Part shown: one piece after another, positions 6,482 to 60,539 of the stretch
How positions within the stretch are numbered: the stretch's first letter is position 1
Layout: the number at the start of each line of letters is the position of its first letter
NCBI RefSeq assembly: GCF_963921235.1
Contig: NC_086097.1
Location: 90,770,001-90,834,000 of the forward strand
From: Mobula hypostoma
Lineage: Eukaryota
Length of the DNA: 64,000 bases
Direction of reading: 5' to 3'
Notes under the pieces: generated by a model
What the model saw: the letters and a program-made list of their open reading frames with translations, nothing else
Told to the model about the DNA's origin: nothing
Database searches by the model: none
Program-made: the position numbers and the translations under genes

Positions 6482-9340
6482 TTAATAATCCCTTAGACCA
6501 GGCTCCAACTCAGCAAACTTCATAGTGGCCAAAAACACTGATGAATTGCGACCAATGTAACCTCTCATTTGGTTTTGTCCCGGACCACAATAACAAGGGT
6601 CGTCCCATTCCGACTCAGTTTTCTCTCGCAAGGGCTTAGTAGGAGGGGGACGGGTATTGACCGCAGAGTTATTGCAAAACTTCCTGCAGTACCCCACCAT
6701 CTCCAAAAGCCTTCTGAGGGCCGTCTTGTCTGTCGGGGTTGGGAGGTCAGCGATAGCCTGCACTGTAGCTTGCATCACTGCCAGCTGCCCCTGTGTCACC
6801 ACAATTCCCAGGTAAGTGACATTCGTGTGGCCGAATTCATTTGTTCCAAGGCTCACTATCACGCTGGCTTCAGACAGCCGTGTTAAATTGCCAATACACA
6901 CCTCTGTGTTCATCAGCCCTTTAGTCACTGAATTACTCAAAAAATATGGGTGTTGTTTGCTTGGCCGCCCTATTGTAACAGACATAACCCAACGTCCCAG
7001 TTCTTTGCATTTCCTCGGGACAATCAAACACATAGGTGCGAGTCGTTTAATTACTCCTTCTAAAGATTCGCTTTGTTCGGGGATTAAGGGAGAGACCTTA
7101 TCAGTAGACCTGGCCAAAACAATAGCCTTCTCCCATCTGACCGATCCCATCCTAATCTTTTCAAAATGGTTTTTTCCTCTTATCAAGGGGCCCCTAGCTT
7201 CATTGATTTCCACGCTAACACCGACTAGGTTTGTTAGTATATCAAAAGCCGGTGACCGTCTCAGTTCGCGTCGGTCATGATCAATAACATTCTTCCCCCT
7301 GGGCAGCCGGTAACTCTCTTTCATGATTCCACCAACTGTTTCCTCCAGCACCGCAAAATGTCCACCGGGGGGTACCTCGTGGGCCATGTTAAAAACCTCA
7401 TCCCCATAACTCTTTTGCACCACCCCCCACTCCTCATCTGCGGATGCTGTACTTGATTTCCCTTTCTTCCTTAGCACTTCCTCATCCGCACAATAGCCTA
7501 CTAGTTCCCTTGTCAAGGCTGTGTCAGAGAGAGCTGTCTCGGCCAAAACCATCAGCCCCTCGTCTCGCTCCTGCGTCTGCACAAATTCTTTCCTGGCTAC
7601 TGCTACGTCCGTCCCAGCTCCCTCACTACCTCTTATCTCACTACACCCTGTCTCATACAAGGTTGGCAGAAATGTTTCAGCCAAATTCACCATCGCGGGC
7701 GGGGCCTCCATGCTGGCAGGCTGACCCGTCAATCTCACGACTGGGAACACGATTCCTCCGGCGATGTCATTACCGAGCAAGACTTCCACGTCTTTCATCG
7801 GTAATTCGGACCTCACCCCGATCGTGACTAGTCCAGAGACCAGGTTGCTCTGTAAATGTATCTGGTGCAAAGGGACTGACTCTGTCCCTTCCCCAACACC
7901 TTTGACCTCTACCTCCCCAGTCTGGGTCTCTGAGCTAAACTCTAATACACTCTTCAGTATTAGTGACTGACACGCTCCCGTGTCTCTCCAGATCCGCACT
8001 GGAACTGGTTTTAACCTCTTTTTCACTGACACCAGTCCGGCCGAGATAAACCTCTCGCGCCCTTCCTGGACTTTTTCAGACCTGTCCTTCCCTAGCGGTT
8101 CGCTTAACAGCTCAATACAGCCATTCAAAATTTCCGCTTTTCCTTTCCCCGTCTCCTTCCTTGGGGCAAAGCACCTGGACGCAAAGTGTCCGACTTTCCC
8201 ACAATTATAACAGACGACTCCAGGAGACTTCCCACCAGACTGCTCCCGGTCTACCTTATCCTTTTCACTAGTCCCCGGCTTACTTTCTGACTTTTCCGGC
8301 GGACTCTCCCCGCCGTCCTGACTACCCTTCTGGTAGCCTTTACTCGGGGCAACCTTCATTTTATGCGTCAACGCATACTCATCCGCTAACTTAGCAGTTG
8401 CGGCTAACGTGGCTGCCTCTTTCTCATCGAGGTAGGGTCTCATACCCTCAGGGACACAACCTTTAAACTGCTCAATCAGAACCAGTTGCAGCAGTCTGTC
8501 ATAATCCCCCTCTACCCCTTTCGAGGCGCACCAACGCTCACAATATGTTTGCATCTCACGAGCAAACTCCAAATACGTGCGGTCCCACCGCTTCCTCGCA
8601 TTCCGGAACCTCTGCCGGTATGCCTCCGGGACCAACTCATAAATCCTGAGGATGGCCTCCTTCACCACCTCATACTTCTGGGCATCTTCCGCGGATAAAG
8701 CGGAGTAAGCTTGTTGGGCTTTCCCTTTTAGTACACTTTGAAGTAAAACAACCCACTTATCCCTCGGCCAGTCCTGACTTATAGCTACTTTTTCGAAGTG
8801 GAGAAAGTACCGATCCACATCGGTATCGTCAAATGGGGGAACCAGCCTAACCTCCTGGGTCGCCCGGAACCCTCCACCTTGGTTCGGCACGAGCTCCTGC
8901 TCGGCCCTTATCTTTAACTTCTCCAGCTCAAATTCCCTTTCCCTCTGTTTCTCCTCTCTCTCCAACTGTCTTTCTCTCTCTTGCCTTTCTACCTCTTTCT
9001 CTCTCTCCCGCCTTTCTAACTCTCTCTCCTGCCTTTCTAACTGCTTCTCTTCGTGTTCTAACTGCCGTACCCGGAACTCGTGCTCGAGTCTCAGTTTTTC
9101 AAGCTGTACCTGTACCGCGTCTCCAGCAGGTTTTTCAATAGACACCTCCCCCAGCTCACCTTGGGGAAACACACCTTTAGATACATAGTGCTCTACAATA
9201 GCTCTGTGTATCTCCTCTCTCCTCATTGTCGACTTCACCTTAGCAAGATTCACCCGTTTTGCCACAGCTATCAATTCCGATTTCCTGGCATCCTCTAATG
9301 CCTCCAAGGTCGGCGCCTTTATAAATTCCTCAACCTCCAT
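6482..9340 (-). CDS. 952-aa Gag-protease polyprotein with degenerate integrase-N and RT remnants
   Basis: E/R-rich coiled coil, SCAN-related capsid (PEAYRQRFR...LVLIEQF), CCHC knuckle CYNCGKVGHFASRC, aspartic protease RDTGA...LLGND. Then integrase Zn-region relic AHEVPPGGHF, followed by RT relics KQHPY, VCIGNL (YxDD position), VTYLG and MVGYCRKFC. Confidence 0.9.
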   Translation of the reverse strand: MEVEEFIKAPTLEALEDARKSELIAVAKRVNLAKVKSTMRREEIHRAIVEHYVSKGVFPQGELGEVSIEKPAGDAVQVQLEKLRLEHEFRVRQLEHEEKQLERQERELERREREKEVERQERERQLEREEKQREREFELEKLKIRAEQELVPNQGGGFRATQEVRLVPPFDDTDVDRYFLHFEKVAISQDWPRDKWVVLLQSVLKGKAQQAYSALSAEDAQKYEVVKEAILRIYELVPEAYRQRFRNARKRWDRTYLEFAREMQTYCERWCASKGVEGDYDRLLQLVLIEQFKGCVPEGMRPYLDEKEAATLAATAKLADEYALTHKMKVAPSKGYQKGSQDGGESPPEKSESKPGTSEKDKVDREQSGGKSPGVVCYNCGKVGHFASRCFAPRKETGKGKAEILNGCIELLSEPLGKDRSEKVQEGRERFISAGLVSVKKRLKPVPVRIWRDTGACQSLILKSVLEFSSETQTGEVEVKGVGEGTESVPLHQIHLQSNLVSGLVTIGVRSELPMKDVEVLLGNDIAGGIVFPVVRLTGQPASMEAPPAMVNLAETFLPTLYETGCSEIRGSEGAGTDVAVARKEFVQTQERDEGLMVLAETALSDTALTRELVGYCADEEVLRKKGKSSTASADEEWGVVQKSYGDEVFNMAHEVPPGGHFAVLEETVGGIMKESYRLPRGKNVIDHDRRELRRSPAFDILTNLVGVSVEINEARGPLIRGKNHFEKIRMGSVRWEKAIVLARSTDKVSPLIPEQSESLEGVIKRLAPMCLIVPRKCKELGRWVMSVTIGRPSKQHPYFLSNSVTKGLMNTEVCIGNLTRLSEASVIVSLGTNEFGHTNVTYLGIVVTQGQLAVMQATVQAIADLPTPTDKTALRRLLEMVGYCRKFCNNSAVNTRPPPTKPLREKTESEWDDPCYCGPGQNQMRGYIGRNSSVFLATMKFAELEPGLRDY

Positions 9341-9416
9341 TTCTGCTGTTTGTCTTTTCTTTCTTTCGGGAATTTTAACCCAATCAATTTACTCCGTCCC
9401 AAATTTAGCGTTCAAA

Positions 9417-15800: not shown

Positions 15801-16181
15801 AAAGTGGCCCTTTTTAATGCTTGCCCTGGATTTGTTGGCCTGCCACTTTTACTTTTCTCCTTTGTACTTTTTGCCTCTACCCTCACTTTACACCCCTCTG
15901 TCTCTCTGCACTGGTTCCCATCCCCCTGTTGTGAACTAATCTCCTCACGCCTAGCCTCTTTAATTTTATTCCCACCCCCCAACCATTCTAGTTTAAAGTC
16001 ACCTCAGTAGCCCCCGCTAATCTACCTGCCAGGATATTGGTCCCCCTAGGATTCAAGTGTAACCCGTCCTTTTTGTACAGGTCACGCCTGCGCCAAAAGA
16101 GGTCCCAATGATCCAAAAACTTGAATCCCTGCCCCCTGCTCCAATCCCTCAGCCACGCATTTATCCTCCACCTCATCGCAT
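12844..16181 (-). mobile_element. Young 5'-truncated CR1 LINE: ORF1 C-terminus, nearly intact ORF2 and 3' (TTTCTATG)n tail
   Basis: ORF1 SGNH-esterase end (DGLHLN) at 15988-16176; ORF2 endonuclease plus RT; 8-bp terminal repeats at 12844-12870. Confidence 0.95.
12947..15997 (-). pseudogene. CR1 ORF2 (APE endonuclease + reverse transcriptase), with frameshifts near 13700 and 13510
   Basis: [51 protein letters not shown] 4-bp duplication in CACTCACTCAC near 13700 breaks the frame. Confidence 0.9.
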
Positions 16182-33953: not shown

Positions 33954-35289
33954 CTAGTGCAAAAGACAAGTTGTGGAAGCAATTGAACCCTGCAATAAAT
34001 TCCCATTTACAAGGTTAACTTTATTATTTGCTTATGACTTTGTCAATCCCGAATTAATAGGCAGTTGCACTTCTGGGAATACCAACTGTCTTTCTTGGAT
34101 CTCTTACACACATTGTAGGATATTTTATTTATAGCTATATTCCATAAAGTACTGCTGTTAAGAGTTAGCACAGCAGCCTGTAAGAGTAAAATACCACATT
34201 CATCACTTTACTCAGTGCATAGCTCAACACAGCAAGACCATGAAGGTCTGATGCATTAAGAGGCATACTGAAGCTGATGGTTTCTTGATGGCTTTGGTAC
34301 TGTGTGTTGAGTTTGATTGATCTACTTACAGAACATTACAGTTTGTCAATGTGCCTACTTATGCACAGATTGTGAGAAGATAGTAAATACCTTCTTGCTG
34401 GATTAAAATGGCAAGATTGTTGATTGGTAAGAGCAGGGACCTGAATTTATCTAGTCCCCGTAACATTGCAAGGTATCCTGAAGCGCTTCACAGGGGTATA
34501 TTCCAATTGAAACTGACACTGATCCACAAAGCTTACTCAAGAAGGGAAATGTTAGAGAGACACAAGAAAGGAGAATTACAGAGGTGAAGGATTTAGAGTG
34601 TAAGTTTGGAGTCTGACGTTTAGGTAGCCCAGGGCCATCAGTTCTTGAGGTGAAAGATGTGGGGGATGCACAAGAGGCTGGAGTTGGTTTAAACTGAGGG
34701 TTAAAAGACTAGAAAAGTTTGCAGGGTTAACAAGGGATGCAAATATACAAAATTTTAAATGGTAGCATTGTGAACAGGGAGCCAATATAAAAGTATGAAA
34801 AGCAAAGTGATAGAGAAAAGAATTATTAATCCAAGCTGGTTTATTACTATCTAGTGACAACACCACTGCACTTCTGTGCCTAGTAAACAACCATAAGTGA
34901 ATCACTAACATGACTTGGGTCTGAACTCTGAAGCGGGGTTAAGTGAAATGAGATGCTTGTTTCAAGGGAAGGACAAGCCATTCAACATCATGAAAAACTT
35001 GAGAGTTAATGGAAACTTCCACAACATTGGACATATGAGCTATGAAATGACCATGAGAAAGGTAACAGCAACCATCCTTCAAAATGATGGATGAATTCAA
35101 AACGAATTGAATGAAATCCATGGTGAGAAATAATTGGATGTAAAATAAGAGACCCTGAAGAGACAAGATAAGGCAAAGACACTTTAGATACAGGGACCTT
35201 TAGTGTTTGTAGATCAATCTATCAAACCTGTGGCTTACGTTGCACTGAAATAGCACTACACAATACTCCAGATTTGGCCTATAAGAAAA

Positions 35290-35830: not shown

Positions 35831-36789
35831 AGGAGCTTGGGCCATCTCAGCTCAATGTCTGCAGGACTACAGAAGAACAACCTCTACTAATTCTAGTCAA
35901 AACATGCAACATCATCTAGTAGAATCCAGGCAAGAAATGGAATAGTGTAAAGAATATTATATGCTATCATATGTGGTTCTCTGAAGCTGGGTCAGATACT
36001 GGGGGACCATTACTCTAGAATAATTAAACTTGGAGCATGTTCAACAGTGTTTTCTCTGTAGAGCTTGCATGTCCCCCGGTGACTGCATAAGTCTCCTCTG
36101 GATGCTCCAGCTCCCTCTGATATTCCAAGGATGTGTGGCTTGTTAAGTTATCCAGGCACTCTAAGCTGCCATTAACATGTGGGTGAATCATATATCTGGG
36201 AGGAACTAATGGAAAAGTAGGAAAAATACAATAGGGTTAGTGAAGGATTTGCATTTCAGATGCCCAATGGCTCCTTTTGACATAATGGGGCAGATCTTCC
36301 ACTCACACCAAGGTCACCAAACATCTGAGACCTGGTTGCTTCGCCTTCTGTGGACTGCCACAGTCTTCCTTAGAGCAGCTTTGACTTTGAAAGTCAATCA
36401 TAAAGACTCAGGAATGAGTAAAACATTAAAAATAGCAATAACAATTTTGAAACCAATCATTTTTAATAAAGTACTAAAATGCACAGACTTACAGCAATTA
36501 AATACAGTTAAACTTGCTGACATAAATCAAAAAGAGAGAAATCAAATAGTGCTGCTTTTATCCCAGGTTGTGGGTATGGTTCCTGCTCGCATTGCCCACA
36601 CCAGGTTTTCACTCTCATGGGTATGCACATATTTGGCACAGTGCAAGGATAAATGCCACCAGGAATTAAATCTATTATTGAGCTCATGCTTTATTCCACT
36701 CAAAACCAACAAATTAGCCTTGCGCATTCCCATAGTGCTTGAGGCATGCCATTGCCCTCCCTGTTAGACTGCAAGTGTCCTTGCAGAAT

Positions 36790-38575
36790 AAGATCAAAAG
36801 ACATAGGAGCCATTCAGCCCATCGAGTCCACTCCACCATTTCATCATGGCTGATCCAGATTCCATTCAATCCCATACATGTGCCCTCTTACCATAACTCT
36901 TGATGCTCCAACCAGTCAGGAATCTATCAACTTCTGCTTTGAATATACCCATGGACTCGTCCTCCACTGCAGTCTGTGGCAGATCATTCTACAGATTCAC
37001 CACTCTTTAGCTAAAATAATTCCTCCTTACCTCTGTGCTAAAAGGTTGCCTCTCAGTTTTGAGGCTGTGCCCTCTAGTTCTGGATACCCCCAACTAGAGG
37101 AAACATTCTCTCCACATGCACCCTATCTAGACTGAAAAACAGTACTTAATAAATTCATCTGCCATTTCATTGTCCTCCATTACTACCTCACCAGCAAAAT
37201 TTTCCAACTCAGTGGGGCCCACAATGTCATAGTGACCAATCTCTAATTACACCCCGAGTTTGTCCACCATATTCCGAATGCTATGAACATTTAAACACAG
37301 CACCTTCCATTTTGCATTCTTCACCCTTTTGAATTTTGCCTCTGTGGTACAATTTAACTCTTTGCTCTGTCTGCTTTTGTACCCAAATTTTGGCTTGTCC
37401 TTCCTAACATTTATGTTACACCCATCATTTGCTTGTAAGCCTGCTGGCTCATCATCAGCCCTATCATACTGGTTCCCATCCCCCTGCCATATTAATTTAA
37501 AGCACTTCCAGCAGCTCTGGCAAACCTGCCCACAAAGATATTGGTCCCCCTCAGATTCAAGTGCAACCTGTCCCTTTTGTACAGGTCACACCTGCCCCAG
37601 AAGAAGTCCCAATGATCCAGAAATCTGAATCCCTGCTTCCTGCTCCAATTCTTCAGCCACGCATTTATCTGCTACCTTATTCTATTCCTATCCTCACTGT
37701 CGCATGGCACAGGCAGTAATCCCGAGATTACTACCCTTGAGGTCATATCACGGTTAGGTTCGACTCCTCATTTTCTTGTAATTTCCTTTTTCCCATGATT
37801 TGCCTGGCTCCTTGATTAAGGTACCTGATTCTCAACCAAATAGGCAACATAAAAGCTCCCGCTTACATCTACTCAGGGCTGGACCGTCACACCTCAGCCA
37901 GTGTGGTAATGCATGTCTGGGCCGCCGAGAATAGTGGACCGTCTCCTGAGCCAGTGCGGCAATGCACATTCCGGGCCGCCGAGAATAGAGGACTCTAAGT
38001 TGTTTCGATACCTGGGGTTGCTTTGGGAATTCTGTCATTTTCGTGTCCAGCTGGGTGTTGCCAGCCGTTTGCCGCTACTCCAAGTCAAGATATGAATTGT
38101 CTGTCATTGTCTGGTTTTGTCGTAACACGTTCGAGTCCCAGCTTCATGTCCGAGTCCAAGTCCAGGCTCCATTTCCCGAATCCAAGTCCAGGCTCCGTGT
38201 CCAAGTCCAAGTGCAGGCTCCTTGACCAAGTTCCAGGTCCAGGCTCCTCCGGTTTGTTGTCCAACGTTCACGTCCACGTATACATCTAATCCTCACTCTC
38301 TGACTTTCCTTGCAGCTATTCTGCAACGTTAAATGGGGAAGTAAAATTCAATTCAGATTTCAAAGATAATTCTGCTAATGCTACCTACTTGTCGGTGTCC
38401 TGCACATGGGTCCGCCCCCAGTCGCTGATTGTAATAGGTCCTGCTTCTCAGCTTCCTTCCTAACTACCTGTATTCTGTTTTCAGGACCTCCTCCCTTTTC
38501 CTACCTATGTAGTTGGTACCAATACCTACCATGACCTCTGGCTGCTCGCCCTCCCTTTTCAGGATGCTCTGGGTG
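36790..38575 (-). mobile_element. Cluster of CR1 fragments, including an ORF1/ORF2 junction (about 37200-37745 and 38437-38575)
   Basis: ORF1 esterase end (LHLNL..TNIFVGRFA) and endonuclease start KVLCLNVHSIRN; split by a solo LTR. Confidence 0.75.
37746..38436 (+). mobile_element. Decayed solo LTR
   Basis: TATCAC...GTAATA termini (decayed TG..CA), flanks GGTCA/GGTCC; interrupts contiguous CR1 sequence; internal short tandem repeats. Confidence 0.65.
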
Positions 38576-39530
38576 TAAGGGGATGTGGCTGTGGATTGCA
38601 TTTTCTGCAGCAACAGTGCAGCTGGCTAGTTTACAGGCAGCAGTAAGGGTTCTAGCTGTATGACAGGGGTAAGAAGCTATATAATGCCTTTTTGATAGGG
38701 TACTGAAGGTTTACTGCGAACCAGAGTCCTAGCAACCCAAGTCATAATTTAGAGGATGGATTGATGAACTTCAAGCCCAGTTCACCCATTATGGCAAACA
38801 TCTGGGCAGCTGCTGTATATGTTTCAATGGGAATTACAGTCAGCCATGGCACGCTGCATCATGCAGGAACATTTAGTTCCTCCCGAGTTCCACTCGAGGA
38901 TTCCAAACCCCGCAAAGCTTTAAGCTAGTCTGGTGTTAGACTCCTCCTTACTCCTTGACAAGGACAGACAAGGGTCCAAGTACTTTATGCCCCCATCCAC
39001 CTTCTTCTGTACATTACCTTTTCCAAATGCCCACCTTTGTTCTCTGCAACCCTGGCATGATCTAGCCCTATCTTCAATTGTATGACATTTTCAGCAGCTT
39101 CGCACTTATCTTTGAAATCTGAATTGAATTTTACTTCCCCATTTAATGTTGCAGGAATCAAACTCTTGACTCTCAGTAATTGGACCAGGCCTTTGGGTAA
39201 TCGCTCAAGAAGTAAGTTGTCATATTTCTACCCCTGCTGCACCAGCCGCTGGGCTAGGTGCATGGAGGCACGGTGGAACATCTAGGCATTTGGAGCGAGG
39301 CCTGATCAGTAGGGGTTATTAGTTGTGATGGGGGTCTGGTGAACCCAGCAAGGGCTGAGTGAGGGTGGTTGCGCGATTGATTGGTTACAGAATGAGTACT
39401 CGCTGACCTCAGCTGCTCGTGTGAGACTAGACCCTCTGTGCAGGTGCACAGAGGATTTACAGAGGCCAGCCTCTCTATTCTTCAGTTACCCTTGACATAC
39501 TCCTGGTTACTAGTCCAAGATTCTTCTCAC

Positions 39531-47769: not shown

Positions 47770-49519
47770 AGTCACAGTAGGGGTGCTGGGAACGGACCCA
47801 AATGCAAGACACAGACACTGAAGTACAAGGGACAGGACTTGACTAGAGTAGGGACGTGACAGGATTCAGGCAAGGAGCAGGGACAAGAACGCAGAGTTGG
47901 GTTAGGGAAAGTGGGACCAGGACTAGGAACCATGGTCTAGGAGGCAAGGCTTGGATTCTGAGCCCGAGACTTGACAAGGACCCAGAAGCTGGGTCTTGCC
48001 TTGGGCTTGGACCCCGGAACCAGGCAAGGACATGACACGGCTTAGGGCTGGGGTCTTGGGTCTTGAGCTTGGCTTGGGATCCTCGAGGCTTGGGGGTCTT
48101 GGGTCTTGAGCTTGGCTGCAGGCTGGGGTCTTGGGTCTTGAGCTTGGCTTGGGATCCTCAAGGCTTGGGTTCTTGGAGCTTGGCTTGGGATCCCCGAGGC
48201 TTGGGGTCTTGGGTCTTGAGCTTGGCTTGGGATCCTCAAGGCTTAGGGTCTTGGGTCTTGAGCTTGGCTTGGGATCCTTGTGGCTTGGGGTCTTAGGTCT
48301 TGAGCTTGGCTTGGGATCCTCAAGGCTTGGGGTCTTGGGTCTTGAGCTTAGCTGCAGGCTGGAGTCTTGGGTCTTAAGCTTGGCTAGGGATCCTCAAGGC
48401 TTGGGTTCTTGGAGCTTGGCTGCAAGATCGTCGAGGCTTGGGTTCTTGGAGCTGGCTGCAGGATCATCGAGGCTTGGGTTCTTGGAGCTTGGCTGCAGGA
48501 TTGTTGAGGCTTGGGTTCTTGGAGCTTGGCTGCAGGATCGTCGAGGCTGATAACTCGGAGACTGGAGCTGAGAGACGGACTGGGAACTGAATATCAACAT
48601 AGAGCCGGGACTTATCCTTCGACAAGCCAGGACTCATCTTTAACACAACACAAACATGAGACAGGACAGAACATAGACATAGAGCTGGGACTTATCCTAC
48701 GACAAGCCAGGACTCAACTTCATCTCCACACCAAGGTGGGATAGGTCTCTCCATCAGATAACGGCAGAACAGCCGGATTTACCCAACAGAGGCAAGGAAA
48801 AGACAAGATAGGTCCCCCCACAGGGCAATGGCAAAACAGCCTGGTTTACTCCACGGAGGCGAAGACAAGACAGATCTCCCCTGCAGGGCAACGGCAAAAC
48901 ATCCTGGCTTACCCCACGGAGGCGAGGACAAGACAAGACAGATCCCCCCACAGGGCAATGGCAAAACAGCCTGGCTTACCCCACAGAGGCGAGGACAAGA
49001 CAAGACAGATCCCTGTGCAGGGCAACGGCAAAACGACCTGGCTAACCCCACAGAGGCAAGGACAAGAAAAGACAAACACCAAAGAAAGACAGACAGTTCC
49101 ATCTCTGCTCCAGGGAAGCTCTGAGTCTCAGTTCAGCCAGCAACCTCAGCTGGCTACGGAAACAGCCAGATCCCTACCTAGCTTGGAGTGGCTGGCAGCC
49201 ACTCAGCTGGCCCAGGAAGTAGCCAAATCCATACCGCAAAGACCACTCCAATGAGTGGCAACAAGGCTCCATGAAGTAGTAGTCCTCCAACCAGGCCTAG
49301 AGATCTCAAATGGTTTCACTAGCCTTCCATCAGCAGGTTGCTCCAAGGGGGACTGATGAGACAAACCAGCAGCCCCCACTCAATCCCAAGGCAAGCCCAA
49401 AGATGGGAATCAGGTGCCTATGATTAATTCAAACAAGGGACAGCCGGAAGACCCGGAGTCCTGAGTCCACGGACCGGACCGTGAACCGGAATATGGACTT
49501 CACGGACCGGACCATGACA
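47770..49519 (-). mobile_element. Large solo LTR-like insertion (1750 bp) inflated by tandem arrays
   Basis: AGTCAC...ATGACA termini with 5-bp TSD CCCAT (47765-47769, 49520-49524); interrupts Gypsy RNase H at EHPI. Confidence 0.75.
48043..49070. repeat. Compound minisatellite: about 42-bp, 37-bp, 78-bp and 60-65-bp units
   Basis: GGCTTGGGGTCTTGGGTCTTGAGCTTGGCTTGGGATCCTC..; GGCTTGGGTTCTTGGAGCTTGGCTGCAGGATCGTCGA; CAGGGCAATGGCAAAACAGCCTGGCTTACCCCAC...GACAAGACAGAT. Confidence 0.9.
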
Positions 49520-52800: not shown

Positions 52801-54478
52801 CGACCAATATGTAATAAAGCATCAGCATCACGCCCTTGCTCTTATATTCTAGTTCTCTGGAAATGAATGCTAACATTGCATTTGCCTTCCTTACCACCGA
52901 CTAAACCTGAAAGTTACCCTTTAGGAAATCCTGCACAAGCACTCCCAAGTCCCTTTGCACCTCTGATTTTTGAATTTTCTCCCCGTTTAGATAATAGTCT
53001 ATGCCTTTATTCCTTCTACCAAAGTTCATGACCATACATTTCCCTGCACTATATTCCACCTGACACTTTTCTGCCCATTCTTACAATCTGCTAAGTTCTT
53101 CTGCCGATGCCCTGCTTTCTCAACACTATCCCTCCAACTGTCTGCAAACTTGGCCACAAAGCCATGGGCTCTTATCTTGTTTAGCCATCTCATGTGTTGG
53201 ACCTTGTCAACGGCCTTCTGAAACTCCAAGTAAACAACCTCTACTGACCCTCCTCTGTTTATCCTGCCTGTTATTTCCTCAAAGAATTCCAACAGATTTG
53301 TCAGGCAAGATTTCCCCTGCTGACTTTGGCCTATTTTATCATGTGCCTCCAAGTACCCTGAAAACTCATCCAACATCAGCGCAACAACTTAAATAGGACT
53401 AATTGGCCTATAATTTTTTCTTCGTGCATCACTCCCCTCCTAAAGAATGGATTGACATTTGCAATTTGCAAGTCCTCAGAAACCATTTCAGAATCTAGTG
53501 ATTCTTGAATGATCATTACTAATGCCTCCACAATCTCTTCAGCTACCTCTGGAGTATAGTCCATCTGGTTCATGTGATTTATCTACCTTCAGACCTTCCA
53601 GATTCCTAAGCATCTTCTCTGTAGTGATAGCAACTACACTCACTTTTGCCCTCTGACGTCCTCAAATTTCTGGCATACTGCTAATGTCTTCCAACTGTGA
53701 AGACTGACTCAAAATATTTATTAAGTTCACCTGCTAGTTCTTCATCCACGATTACTACCTCTGCAGGGTCATTTTTCCAGCAGTCCAATAATCACTCTCA
53801 ACTCTCTTTCATTCTTTATATATCTGAAAAAAGCAATTGGTATCCCCTTTTATGTTATTGATTAGCTTACATTTCATTTTTTCCTCCTTATCCCACTTTT
53901 TTTAGTTGCCTTCTGTTGGCTTTTAAAAGCTTTCCAATCCTCTAGTGTCCAACTAATTTTAGCTATATTATATGGTCTCTCTTTTGCTTCCCTTGTTAGC
54001 CATGGTTGTTTCATCTTCCCTTTAGAACACTTCTTTGTCTTTGGGATACATATATCCTGTGCCTTCCAAATTGCCCCCAGAAACTTCAGCCATTGCTGTT
54101 TGGCCATCATCTCTGATAGTGTCCCCTTCCAATCAACTTCAGCCAGCTCCTTTCTCCTGCTTCTGTGATTCCTTTTACTCCACTGTAGTACTGATACACC
54201 TGATTCTATCTCCTCCCTCTCAATCTGCACAGTGAATTCCATCATATTATAATCATTAGCTCCCTAAGGTTCCTTTACCTTAAGCTCCCTATTCAAATCT
54301 GCTTCATTACACAGCACCCAAACCATAATTGCCTTTCCCCTAGTGGGTTCAACTACAAGCTTCTCTAAGTAGCCATCTCATAGGCAATCTACAAATTCCC
54401 TCTCTTAGGATCCAGCACCAACCTGATTTTCCCAGTCTACCTGCATATTGAAATCCCCCATGACTATCACAACATTAC

Positions 54479-55700
54479 ATAAGAAAATAAGAACATAAGA
54501 AATAGGAGCAGGAGTAGGCCATCTGGCCCATCAGGCCTGCTCCGCTGTTCAATAAGATCATGGCTGATCTGGCCATGGATTCATCTCCACCTACCTGCCT
54601 TTTCCCCATTGCCCTTAATTCCCCTACTATGCAAAAATGTATCCAACTTTGTCTTAAATATATTTACTGAGGTACCTCCACTGCTTCATTGTACTGAGAA
54701 TTCCAGATTCACCACTCCCTGGGAAAATTAGTTCCTCCTCATCTTTGTTCTAAATTTACTCCCCGGAATCTTGTGGCTATGTCCCCTAGTTCTAGTTTCA
54801 TTTACCAGTGAAAGCAACTTTCCTGCCTCTATCTTATCTATCCCTTTCATAATTTTATATCCTTCTATAAGATCTCCTCTCATACTTCTGAATTCCAGCG
54901 AGTACTGCCCCAGGTGATTCTATCTCTCTGCATAGTCTAACCCCCCCATCTCTGGAATCAGTCTGGAAAACCTCCTCTGCACCACTTCCAAAGCCAGTAT
55001 ATCCTTCCTCAAGTAAGGAGACCAGAACTGCACGCAGTACTCCAGGTGTTACCTCACCAGTACCCTGTACAGTTGCAGCATAACCTCCCTGCTCTTAATC
55101 TTTCAAGCAACGAAGGCCAACATTCCATTTGCCTTCTTGATAACCTGCTGCACCTGCAAACCAACCTTTTGTGATTCATGCACAAGCACTCCCAAGTCCT
55201 TCAGCACAGCAGCATGCTGCAATATTTTACCATTTAAATAATAATCTGATCTTCCATTTTTCCTTCCAAAGTGGATGACCTCACATTTACCAACATTGTA
55301 CTCCATCTGCCAGACCGTTGCCCACTCATTTTGCCTACCTATATCTCTCTGCAGACTCTTTGTATCCTCTGCACAATTTGCTTCTCCACTCAATTCAGTG
55401 TCATCAGCAAACTTAGATACATTACCCCTGGTCCCCTCTTCCAGATCGTTAATCTATATTGTGAACAGTTGCGGGTCCAGCACCAACCCCTGCAGCACAC
55501 CACTCACCACTGATTGCCAACTAGAGGAACACCCATGTATCCCAACTCTCTGCTTTCTATTGGCTAACCACTCCACTATCTATGCTAATATATCACCCCA
55601 ACTCTATGCATCCTTATCTTATGGATAAGTCTTTTATGTGGCACCTTATCGAACGCCTTCTGGAAATCCAAGTAAATAACATCCGTCTGTTCTCCTCTAT
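54479..55700 (-). mobile_element. Nested CR1 3' fragment
   Basis: [28 protein letters not shown]; tail CATAAGAA repeats at 54478-54502. Confidence 0.85.
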
Positions 55701-55984
55701 CCACATTGCCCTTATTACATGTCTTTTCTATCTCCCATTGTAATCTATATCCCAAATCCTGGCTACTGTTCAGAGGGCTGTATATAACTCCCATCAGGGT
55801 CTTTTTACTCTTGCAGTTTCTTAATTATACCCACAAAGAATCTACATCTTCCGATCCTATGTCACTTCTTTCTAATGATTTGAGTTCATATTTTACCAAA
55901 AGAACCACCCCATCCCCTCTGCCTACATGCCTGTACTTTCAATACAAAGTGTATCCTTGGATGTTAAGCTCCCAACTATGATCC

Positions 55985-58900
55985 GCATGGTTTGTTGCCT
56001 CCCGGGTGTCAGGGTCTGGGATGTCTCTGACTGGGTGCACAACATCCTGGTATGAGAGGGAAAGCAACCAGGAGTTGTGATACATGTTGGCATCAACGAC
56101 ATGGGCAGGAAGAGGGATGAGGTCCTGAAATGTGAGTTTTGGGAACTAGGCAGAAGGCTGAAGAACAGGACCTCAAAGCTGGCGTTCTCAGGACTGCTGC
56201 CAGTTCTACATGATAGTGATGGTAAGAATTGGAGGAGATGGCAGTTGAATGAGTGGCTGAGGAGTTGGTGCAGGGAGCAGGGTTTTAGATTTTTGGTTCA
56301 TTGGGATCTCTTCTGGGGAAGGTGGGACCTGTACAGATTGGATGGGTTGCACCTGAACTCGAGGGGGAGCAATATCCTTGCAGGTAGGTTTGCTAGCATG
56401 GTTTGGGAGGGTTTAGACTAATTTGCAAAGGGGATGGGACTCGGAGTGCTAGAGCAGTGGATGAAGTGCATGGAGTAAAGCCAGATCTAACATATATAGA
56501 GGCTTTGAGGAAAGAGAAGTAGAATAAATAGTGTAAAGGTAGTAAGGCAGAAGAGCTAAAGTGCATGTACTTCAATGCAAGAAGCATCAGGAACAAAGGT
56601 GATGAACTGAGAGCTTGGATACATACATGGAATTATGATGTAGTGGCCATTACAGAGATTTGGCTGGCACCAGGGCAGGAATGGATTCTCAATATTCCTG
56701 GATTTCAGTGCTTTAAAAGGGATGGGGGGGGGAAGGGGAGGAGGGGTGGCATTACTGGTCAAAGATACTATTACAGCTACAGAAAGGGTGGGTAATGTAG
56801 CAGGATCCTCTTTTGAGTCAGTATGGGTGGAAGTCAGGAACAGGAAGGGAGCAGTTACTCTATTGGGAGTATTCTATAGGCCCCCTGGTAGCAATAGAGA
56901 TACCGAGGAGCAGATTGGGAGGCAGGTTTTGGAAAATTTCCAACGGTTTAGACGGGGCAGAGTTTGTTAAGTGTGTCTAGGATGAATTCCTGTCACAGTA
57001 TGTTGACAGGCTGACTAGGGGGAATTCCCTGCTAGATCTAGTATTAGGTAATGAATGGGGTCAGGTCACAGATCTCTCAGTGGGTGAGCATCTGGGGGAC
57101 AGTGACCACCACTCCCTGGCCTTTAGTATTATCATGGAAAAGGATAGGATCAGAGAGGACAGAAAAATTTTTTATTGGAGAAGGGCAAATTATGAGGCTA
57201 TAAGGCTAGAACTTGCGGGTGTGAATTGGGATGATGTTTTTGCAGGGAAATGTACTAATGACATTTGGTCCATGTTTAGGGATCTCTTGCAGGACGTAAG
57301 GGATAAATTTGTCCCGGAGAGGAAGATAAAGAATGGTAAGGTGAAGAAACCATGGGCGACAAGTGAGGTGGAAAATCTATTCAGGTGGAAGAAGGCAGTA
57401 TACGTGAGGTTTAGGAAGCAAGGATCAGATGGGTATATTGAAGAATATAGGGTAGCAAGAAAGGAGCTTAAGAAGGGGCTGAGGAGAGCAGGAAGGGGGC
57501 ATGGGAAGGCCTTGGTGAGTAGGGTAAAGGAAAACCCCAAAGCATTCCTCAATTATGTGAAGAACAAAAGGATGACAAGAGTGAAGGTAGGACCGATTAG
57601 AGATAAAGGAGGCTGTGGAAGTGAGCGAGGTCCTCAATGAATACTTCTCTTCGGTATTCACCAATGAGAGGGAACTTGATGACGGTGAGGACAATATGAG
57701 TGAGGTTGATGTTCTGGATCATGTTGATATTAAGGGTGAGCAGGTGTTGAAGTTGTTAAAATACATTAGGACAGATAGGTCCCCGAGGCCTGACGGAATA
57801 TTCCCCAGGCTGCTTCACGAGGCAAGGGAAGAGACTGCTGAGCCTCTGGCCAGGATCTTTATGTCCTCGTTGTCCATGGGAATGGTACCGGAGGATTGGA
57901 GGGAGGCGAATGTTGTTCCCTTGTTCAAAAAAGGTAGTAGGGATAGTCTGGGTAACTATAGACCAGTGAGCCTTACGTCTGTGGTGGAAAAGCTGTTGGA
58001 AAAGATTCCTAGAGATAGGATCTATGGACACTTAGAGAAACATGGTCTGATTAGGGATAGTCAGCATGGCTTTGTGAAGGGCAGATTGTGTCTAACAAGC
58101 CTGATAGAGTTCTTTGAGGAGGTGACCAGGCATATAGATGAGGGTAGTGCAGTGGATGTGATCTATATGGATTTTAGTAAGGCATTTGACAAGGTTCCAC
58201 ATGGTAGGCTTATTCAGAAAGTCAGAAGGCATGGGATCTAGGGAAGTTTGGCCAGGTGGATTCAGAATTGGCTTGCCTGCAGAAGGCAGAGGGTCGTGGT
58301 GGAGGGAGTACATTCGGATTGGAGTGTTGTGACTAGCAGTGTCCCACAAGAATCGGTTCTGGGACCTCTACTTTTTGTGATTTTCATTAATGACCTGGGT
58401 GTCGGGGTAGAAGGGTAGGTTGACAAGTTTTCAGATGACACAAAGGTTGGTGGTGTTGTGGATAGTGTAGAAGATTGTAGAAGATTGCAGACAGACATTG
58501 ATAGGATTACAGAAATGGCAGATGGAGTTCAACCCAGAGAAATGTGAGGTGGTACACTTTGGAAGGACAAACTCCAAGGCAGAGTACAAAGTAAATGGTA
58601 GGATACTTGGTAGTGTGGAGAGGCAGAGGGATCTTGGGGTACATGTCCACAGATCCCTGAAAGCTGCCTCACAGGTGTTAAGAAAGCTTATGGGATGTTA
58701 GCCTTCATAAGTCGAGGGATAGAGTTTAAGAGTCGCGAGGTAATGATGCAGCTCTATAAAACTCTGGTTAGGCCACACTTGGAATACTGTGTCCAGTTCT
58801 GGTCGCCTCACTATAGGAAGGATGTGGAAGCATTGGAAAGGGTACAGAGGAGATTTACCAGGATGCTGCTTGGTTTAATGGTGGAGGCAGATACACTAGT

Positions 58901-59035: not shown

Positions 59036-60539
59036 CAGACATGACTTGGACAGGCTCACAACATCATACCTGCCAATCTCCAACTGCACTACAAGATCAC
59101 CTATTTTATTCCATATACTGCGTGTATTCATATATAATGCATTCAATCCTGTTTTCATATTTACGCCTTCAGTCCTATATTCATTACCTTTTTTGATTTT
59201 GCCCCCAGTTACACTTCAATTCATCCCACTGCAGTTTTATCCTATCATCTGGCCTGTCCTTCCTGACAGTCTCACCGCATAATGCATTGGCTTGTATACT
59301 GATTGTCCCATCCTCAGCCCAGTTACTCCGGTTCCCACCCCACTGCCATATTCGTTTAAATCCTCCCCAATAGCACTAGCAAACCTGCCCTCGGGTTCAG
59401 GTGTACCTGTCCTTTTTGTACAGGTCGTACCTTCTCCAGAAGAGATCCCAGTGATCCAGAAATGTGAAACCCTAACCCTGCACCACTCCCTCAGCCGTTC
59501 ATTCATCTGTACTCTCATCCTATTCCTGTCCTGATGAGCACGTGTTACTGGGAGTAATTCAGCAATTACTACATTGGAGGTCTTGCTCCTCTGTCTCTTC
59601 CCTAACTTCCTATACTCATTCTACAGGACTTTTTCTTTTCCCCTGCCCTCTTTCTTCCCATGTCCTTGGTGCCAATGTGCATCATGACCTCTGACTGCTG
59701 ACCATCCCTCTTGAGAATCTTCGGCAGCCGCTCTGAAAAATCTTGGACCTTAGCACCTGGGAAGCAGCCCACCATCCTGGTTTCTCTTTCACGGCCACAT
59801 AATCTGCTGTCCGTCCCCCTAACTATTGAGTCTCCTATCACTATCATTCTGCCTGTCTTTACTTTTCCCTGCTGAGCCTCAGAGCCGGCCACGGTGCCAC
59901 TGGCCCGGCTGTTGCTGCCGTTCCCTGATAGGTCATTTCCCCCACACCCACCCCCGGCAGTATCCATAGGGGTATATTTCCTGCTGAGAGAAATAGCCAC
60001 ATGGAAACCTTGCACTGATTTCTTATCCCCCTTACTTCTCCTGGTGGTCACCCATCCACTGTTTGATTCCTGAACTCTGGGTGTGACCATCTCTGCAAGC
60101 ATCTCATCTATTAGGATTTCAGCCTTTCTGATGGTCCGAAGAACATCCAGCTCCAGCCCTATTTCGCTGATGTTGGGTGAACTTCTTTCACCAGAGAGAA
60201 CATTAGGTACCCTAAAATCCCATATCTCACAGCAGAAGCATTTTGTTGCCATAACTACCACCTTGCCTACCCTTGTCATACCTCTAACTTCTCAAACTGA
60301 AGCTCTAGCCTGCTCCTGTTCTTGCCCAAGCCCGCTGAGCCAAATTCTGGCCCCTCTAATAGTCCAACAATGGCCGCTCTGCTTACACCTCACTTCTCTT
60401 TATTGTCCCCTGCCAGATGCCTAAAAAAATTGCAATGATTGCAGCCTGCCAAAAAGTTCCTAAAGGCTCCTAGCTCTTTTTAAACTTTGTGCTGTCACAC
60501 CAATGAACAACCTCTCACGAGATTGCAGCGTGCCAAAAA

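Follow-up and report, generated by a model that had tools for sequence, protein, structure and literature searches.

A conserved ORF1-ORF2 junction in a dead CR1 element of a ray is probably a −1 frameshift site

The conserved ORF1-ORF2 junction of a CR1 relic near 37.5 kb of the window (the whole 64-kb stretch of Mobula hypostoma DNA analysed here) is probably a real −1 frameshift site, as judged from sequence comparison. The locus itself is a dead, 5'-truncated and internally deleted copy of a CR1 LINE with an esterase-type ORF1. A preliminary description had recognized a slippery heptamer adjoining the ORF1 stop codon and taken it as support for frameshifting; the observation was confirmed and its interpretation is partly supported, but the 37.5-kb relic is neither strong nor independent evidence. 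Since Leu-Asn-stop is invariant across nine ORF1 clusters and birds, the frameshift model survives despite a Met codon in the linker of the family.

Results

Structure of the relic at 37.5 kb

The following features were assigned to the locus.

38437..38586, minus strand: 5' piece of the ORF1 SGNH-esterase domain, matched by ORF1 homologues at 60-71% identity (tblastn, E 1e-7 to 1e-15)
37746..38436, no strand assigned: 691-bp insertion splitting ORF1 (flanks GGACC/TGACC, GACC exact)
37492..37744, minus strand: esterase end of ORF1, with ...GSALN-stop as its C-terminus (ORF1 homologues up to 71% identical by tblastn)
37495..37501, minus strand: slippery heptamer X_XXY_YYZ, T_TTA_AAT in this copy and T_TTA_AAC in the family
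37492..37494, minus strand: ORF1 stop codon directly after the heptamer, TAA in this copy
37472..37489, minus strand: G-block, W-Q-G-D-G-N in the −1 frame (alignment of the four window junctions)
37292..37501, minus strand: open −1-frame linker, codons 1-70, from heptamer to endonuclease (translation; fraction of open shuffles, 0.0074)
37412..37414, minus strand: linker codon 30, Ile in this copy and Met in the family
37388..37390, minus strand: linker codon 38, Lys in this copy and probably Met in the family
37208..37291, minus strand: start of the APE endonuclease with motif I (tblastn of the 16-kb ORF2, E 2e-11), ATG at codon 78 and stop at codon 85
36790..37207, minus strand: EN-RT interdomain remnant, ORF2 C-terminal remnant and decayed 3' UTR (translations; approximate boundaries)

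The copy is truncated near 38586, its ORF1 is split at 37746-38436, and its ORF2 runs into a stop at codon 85, with little of the endonuclease and nothing of the RT remaining. A Pfam search with the 84 codons of relic ORF2 gave no match, only motif I surviving, and the segment 37109-36939 matches the copy near 16 kb at 71%. The insertion within ORF1 is probably solo-LTR-like, as judged from its ends. These ends are decayed and LTR-like with a GACC duplication, and 49 nt of the insertion match 39106-39154 on the opposite strand at 98%. Among contigs of related copies, 266-317 per DNA run have loose ends at 37744 that lead on into the ORF1 piece from 38437 onward. An Rfam search of 36500-39500 gave no match at E 1.

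The assignment to CR1 is based on several comparisons. CR1 elements end in a short tandem repeat and not in poly(A); the 3' end of the 16-kb copy is made of TTTCTATG repeats, which are decayed in the 37.5-kb relic. The RT of the 16-kb copy and a bird RT model share 56% identity over 194 aa, the bird RT sequences being presumably those named CR1. In ORF2 of the same copy, Pfam PF03372 (APE endonuclease) is followed by PF00078 (RT). For ORF1, the esterase alignment matched PDB 4C1B (ORF1-encoded protein) with E 5e-37, and PF13472 was detected with E 1.6e-9 on a sister copy at 56056-56418. The same combination of ORF1 esterase and APE-RT ORF2 is known for vertebrate CR1 of subgroup 7, whose ORF1 of type IVB carries a zinc-finger/leucine-zipper and an SGNH esterase according to the available text of Metcalfe and Casane (2014; PMC4120745).

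At the junction, the minus strand reads GCT TTA AAT TAA, with T_TTA_AAT at 37501-37495 and the stop at 37494-37492, followed by TATGGCAGGGGGATGGGAAC, exactly as first described. Counted from the heptamer, the −1 frame, for which about 80 open codons had been given, runs through 84 codons without a stop. Codon 71 encodes the motif-I Asn, and codon 78 (37270-37268), inside KVLCLNVHSIRNM, is the first ATG. Codons 5-70 stayed open in 0.74% of 5000 shuffles. One out-of-frame ATG right after the stop was rejected as an ORF2 start, for it is in the wrong frame, opens only 8 codons and is not conserved: it is absent in 52-68% of the depth of related contigs, the change being silent in the −1 frame.

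Family state of the junction and the linker

Contigs of related copies from four public runs (17061, 19072, 15969 and 1697 contigs) were aligned on 37230-37780 at 80% likeness; the shares given here are summed contig depth, not copy numbers, and are based on 40 of 137 difference rows. Private decay of the window copy was evident from 24 of these 40 rows, in which at least 85% of the X1 depth differs from the window. The internal stop in the C-terminal part of ORF1 is also private, row 37673 being Trp in 95-97% of the relatives' depth. The last base of the heptamer (row 37495) is C in 0.97, 0.96, 0.98 and 0.91 of the depth, indicating T_TTA_AAC as the family sequence; the base before the heptamer differs as well, the family having GGT and not GCT. 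No difference row falls within 37496-37501 among the 40 of 137. The ORF1 stop itself varies, being TAG in the 16-kb copy and TGA in one aligned contig (X5 joint 37484-37545). These findings support the conclusion that heptamer, stop, −1 offset and G-block are features of the 37.5-kb subfamily, in agreement with the earlier claim that all four are kept, except that the final T of the heptamer and the preceding GCT turned out to be private to the 37.5-kb copy.

Codon 30 of the linker (row 37412) is Met in 0.98, 0.99, 0.97 and 0.94 of the depth, that is, in all four runs. Codon 38 is probably Met as well, rows 37389 and 37388 each reaching 0.94-0.98, with their co-occurrence inferred and the first base assumed unchanged. 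The ATG at codon 78 is private, row 37269 giving Lys in 97-99% of the relatives' depth. The absence of a linker ATG in the 37.5-kb copy is an artefact of decay. The statement that no ATG precedes the endonuclease motif thus holds for this copy but not for its family, and an upstream in-frame ATG in the subfamily, which the preliminary description had itself named as evidence against its model, is present at codon 30 (94-99% of depth, four of four runs).

The family AUG at codon 30 follows the ORF1 stop by 77 nt and has A at −3, and reinitiation is therefore possible in the 37.5-kb subfamily. Under termination-reinitiation as in L1 or SART1, ribosomes would restart at this linker AUG or at a near-cognate codon, and Leu-Asn-stop would be kept for some reason of protein function or termination. 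The 37.5-kb subfamily resembles human L1 and SART1 in its bicistronic LINE RNA with an in-frame AUG past the stop; SART1 uses stop-start (PMC3894237 and PMC3708506, as far as their available text goes), and AUG-independent or unusual initiation is considered likely for mammalian L1 ORF2 in the part of a review at hand (PMC5009743). Upstream of the family AUG, moreover, only 25 codons remain, a length over which 21.8% of shuffles are open. Met codons are found in other linkers, some predicted proteins begin in the linker, and the 16-kb copy carries a near-cognate TTG at codon 6. Nevertheless we consider reinitiation unlikely. Several out-of-frame AUGs, one of them in strong context (37479), precede codon 30; seven such ATGs lie between stop and codon 30 in the 37.5-kb copy, of which five are untouched by the listed majority rows. 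Start positions are unconserved, and in the 16-kb family motif I is reached without any AUG. CR1 also differs from L1 and SART1 in that its frames overlap at a conserved slippery site, while its AUG is not conserved between subfamilies. An ORF2 with no other start was found only in the 16-kb family and not in the 37.5-kb subfamily.

Four junctions in the window

Four ORF1/ORF2 junctions were detected in the 64-kb window, at 15997, 37501, 56412 and 59360. Those used for comparison are as follows.

15991..15997, minus strand: heptamer T_TTA_AAC followed by TAG, young 16-kb family
56412..56418, plus strand: third junction, heptamer decayed by one letter, TAA kept
59354..59360, minus strand: fourth junction, T_TTA_AAC intact, stop lost

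Across the four, 26 of the 28 heptamer letters are kept. The young 16-kb copy is 95-97% identical to two siblings; the motif-I Asn of its ORF2 is codon 87, and its first in-frame ATG is codon 216, without any earlier one. Within the last 51 codons of ORF1, the 37.5-kb and 16-kb copies are 75-84% identical by codon position, whereas their linkers, when globally aligned with gaps, show an identity of 0.69 as compared with 0.65 +/- 0.04 for shuffles. This combination of a similar ORF1 end and a linker at shuffle level supports the view that the two copies represent separate CR1 subfamilies, and the strong difference of the linkers noted at the outset is borne out. What could not be upheld is the independence of the second junction: the two copies share it by descent, and at about 80% identity seven matching letters are expected in about 1 of 5 cases (0.8^7). 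Because ORF1 is about 80% identical between the two copies, the heptamer shared by this pair is weak evidence.

In the 51 codons preceding the heptamer of three copies, TTA accounts for 2 of 22 Leu codons and AAC for 1 of 7 Asn codons, counts that speak for the frameshift model. The bare TTTAAAY+stop occurs five times in the window, three of these without esterase or endonuclease context, so the motif alone is not rare and it is the position at the end of ORF1 that counts. These three (34688, 26721 and 52450) were rejected as junctions and attributed to chance. The site at 34688 on the plus strand reads GGT TTA AAC TGA with a G-rich tail, has neither esterase upstream nor endonuclease downstream, and is likewise attributed to chance, though it might conceivably belong to a distant element.

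Other CR1 pieces were noted in the course of this comparison. An old copy at 59354-60291 on the minus strand retains nearly the whole ORF1, from zinc finger to esterase, in indel-broken form, with the heptamer intact and the stop lost. Another, at 54477-55704 on the minus strand, is a CR1 3' fragment nested in the endonuclease region of a different CR1. The 16-kb family has two G-blocks about 60 nt apart, the second of which, at 15928-15910 on the minus strand, is identical in 19 of 19 nt to the one after the 37.5-kb heptamer.

Conservation of the ORF1 end and of the −1 frame among homologues

The search for ORF1 homologues gave 32 matches, of which the named ones belong to rays, skates and sharks. 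At its ORF1 end, the 16-kb copy shares 98% identity with a Mobula protein. For alignment of the C-terminus, the 26 of 32 matches with a normal end were used; P0022 and P0025, which run on into ORF2, and P0029-P0032, which are pieces of host gene models, were omitted. The 26 complete ends, compared at the protein level, share 52-92% identity in the esterase and fall into 9 clusters at 75%. Asn is the last residue in 26 of 26 and Leu-Asn the last pair in 25 of 26. The entropies of the Asn and Leu positions are 0 and 0.24 bit, compared with 1.6-2.6 bit over positions −3 to −8. The residue at −3 can be encoded by a codon ending in U in all 26, whereas at −4 this is impossible for 18 of 26. As the heptamer needs a U-ending codon at residue −3, all 26 residues there are compatible with the shift site. 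Two of six bird-type ORF1 matches reach the end, both with ERALN, and two cluster mates, one of them from Larus, also end in ERALN.

FKL with I, N, E or D as the next residue is found in the −1 frame of the 37.5-kb and 16-kb copies, of P0022, P0025 and P0201, and of the bird model P0065, which fits the reading of an overlapped stop, and the open linkers in this set are 71-111 codons long. P0022 and P0025 (both Hypanus) and P0065 are gene predictions, compared as proteins, in which introns may be hidden or indels corrected, and P0201 is an ENA protein. Under reinitiation there would be no explanation for the constant −1 offset, with FKL read across the stop in six lineages, for the U-ending constraint at residue −3 or for the invariant Leu-Asn from rays to birds. 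Met positions in the linker differ by lineage (30/38, 19, 44 and none), and 73% of 70-codon linkers would hold at least one Met by chance. A Met is located 20-45 codons before motif I in P0034, P0043 and P0173, and the predicted proteins P0033 (MPGDGN) and P0040 (MQGDGN) begin at the codon-5 position. The 2A StopGo motif, as given in PMC3708506, was absent from the four linkers by inspection.

Splicing or transcriptional slippage, instead of a ribosomal shift, might join or expose ORF2. The bird model P0065 joins a host exon to FKLDVKGEG, and the two Hypanus models P0022 and P0025 run ORF1 into ORF2, as splicing could bring about. However, the 15 of 187 joints covered rest on 1-3 contigs each, none of the 15 being recurrent or having minus-strand GT..AG ends, and splicing would delete sequence from the retroposed copy. 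As for slippage, the homopolymers are only 3-4 long, and one insertion row only was seen, at 37504, among 40 of 137 rows, in contigs that drop rare forms and with X22 only presumed to be RNA. We regard this explanation as very improbable.

The length of the G-run just before the heptamer changes among the batoid ORF1 ends P0022, P0025, P0026 and P0016 (GGGLN, GGGGLN). In P0022 and P0025, ORF1 runs into ORF2 through GFKL, and the G-run looks indel-prone. A piece of the esterase is present as an exon in four Mobula host gene models (P0029-P0032), possibly by exonisation or as an annotation artefact. Searches for DNA of related junctions yielded nothing usable in metagenome contigs (pattern, 0; also with the ORF1 protein or alignment), viral contigs (0 loci), genome contigs or phage records, and a homologue search with ORF2 residues 1-140 among longer proteins gave 0 of 194 candidates.

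Search for a stimulatory element

No local stem-loop was found 3' of the heptamer, where a stimulator is expected at a spacing of 5-9 nt; 12 folds gave z-scores between −1.05 and +0.91. Pairing of the G-block with distant partners was rejected as no better than in shuffles. Folding by ViennaRNA with G-quadruplexes allowed gave a two-tier G-quadruplex in two of the four copies (37.5-kb and 16-kb) in the same register, and none in the two older copies. In the 37.5-kb copy it starts at 37488, 6 nt after the heptamer. Two-tier quadruplexes also formed in 12 and 29 of 200 shuffles. This predicted weak G-quadruplex is a lead only as a candidate stimulator. According to the available text of PMC3919603, a G-quadruplex RNA that follows UUUAAAC at a distance of 6-8 nt can raise −1 slippage in vitro to as much as about 7%; the tracts there are G3, whereas the CR1 candidate has two tiers.

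Within the G-block, the Gly codons at two conserved Gly positions are GGG in 7 of 7 cases, compared with 23 of 70 in the 16-kb ORF2. Such codon choice points to a constraint at the RNA level, and together with the failure to find a classical stimulator by folds or long-range pairing it would agree with another explanation, in which heptamer and G-block form an RNA element or a dual-coding constraint (for RNP assembly or termination) and ORF2 is made in some other way. In both phase and letters, however, the conserved element corresponds exactly to a −1 shift site, and it lies where the two frames meet, which they do nowhere else; we hold this explanation to be quite improbable.

Other repeats in the window

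An open frame of 968 codons at 6482-9388 on the minus strand encodes a SCAN domain (E 1e-12) and a CCHC zinc knuckle, followed by protease-like and RT-like remnants. It appears to be a piece of a Gypsy-like gag-pol with a SCAN domain and is flanked by repeats at about 5.9 and 9.9 kb, with a third copy of the repeat near 43.7 kb. Tandem-repeat-like open frames made of PKPSSRPKTPSLED units extend over 47843-49254, with a second array near 48745-49254.

Discussion

We consider it likely that programmed −1 slippage on U_UUA_AAC adjoining the stop gave rise to an ORF1p-linker-EN-RT fusion, in which the linker Met codons are internal. X_XXY_YYZ is the canonical heptamer of −1 slippage in the available part of PMC3542737; the family sequence T_TTA_AAC matches it in the phase of ORF1, and the downstream ORF is open in the −1 frame. 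On the RNA of the active ancestor, the majority of ribosomes would stop after ...Gly-Leu-Asn and release ORF1p. A minority would slip back by one base on U_UUA_AAC through tandem slippage of the Leu and Asn tRNAs, and would miss the adjacent stop. The slipped ribosomes would then read L-I-W-Q-G-D-G-N and the 70-codon linker into endonuclease and RT. The product would be an ORF1p-ORF2p fusion like Gag-Pol, and the linker Met codons of the 37.5-kb subfamily would be ordinary internal residues. As a speculation to which we give low confidence, the pause would come from the stop adjoining the shift site together with the conserved G-block, which might fold into a weak G-quadruplex 6 nt downstream.

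The proposed site is similar to those of viral and retroviral −1 frameshifting with respect to U_UUA_AAC in the right phase and a downstream ORF in the −1 frame, but no stem-loop or pseudoknot was recognized by local folds and long-range pairing, and the stop immediately follows the heptamer. Among retrotransposons, Dictyostelium TRE5-A and TRE3-A both require a −1 frameshift for ORF2, as stated in the available text of a review (PMC5911963). They share with the ray CR1 the layout of ORF1, −1 shift and APE-RT, and differ as amoebal, tRNA-gene-targeted elements with no esterase described for ORF1 in that text; the likeness noted is one of layout. Frameshifting with a pseudoknot can separate ORF1 of two-ORF Penelope-like elements (PMC8557442, figure legend), and some Penelope-like elements carry an esterase (PMC3905857, in the text available). 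Penelope-like elements differ from the ray CR1 by another RT class and endonuclease, and by the pseudoknot stimulator, no counterpart of which was recognized at the CR1 junction by folds or long-range pairing.

No paper proposing frameshifting in vertebrate CR1 was found in the literature covered, early CR1 papers and Repbase reports lying outside its scope with prior mention there possible. The word 'frameshift' has no occurrence in PMC4120745, PMC3905857, PMC3708506 and PMC8665684, and is used for other matters in the available text of PMC4255032, PMC5006619 and PMC11835228. CR1 goes unmentioned in the first 300,000 of 449,034 characters of a review of frameshifting (PMC5009743). Initiation of LINE ORF2 translation is treated as an open question, with no discussion of frameshifting, in the available part of a review of non-LTR protein synthesis (PMC3894237).

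The argument from an 'AUG-less ORF2' needs subfamily consensuses, as single dead copies gain and lose ATGs, and it does not apply to all subfamilies. If the −1 site is true, the ORF2 protein of CR1 would be a Gag-Pol-like fusion with the esterase attached, and annotations that begin ORF2 at the first Met would be wrong. CR1 fills much of the 64-kb window and is the most abundant interspersed repeat in chicken, as stated in the available text of PMC11835228. Very tentatively, and with more doubt than confidence, the junctions from cartilaginous fish to birds may suggest that, ever since jawed vertebrates arose, esterase CR1 has made its endonuclease-RT as an ORF1-ORF2 fusion by −1 slippage on a single U_UUA_AAC-stop site. 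In place of the pseudoknot it would use something G-rich, either a G-tract bound by protein or a weak G-quadruplex. If this is true, a natural frameshift stimulator of the G-quadruplex type would reside in one of the commonest repeats of vertebrates.
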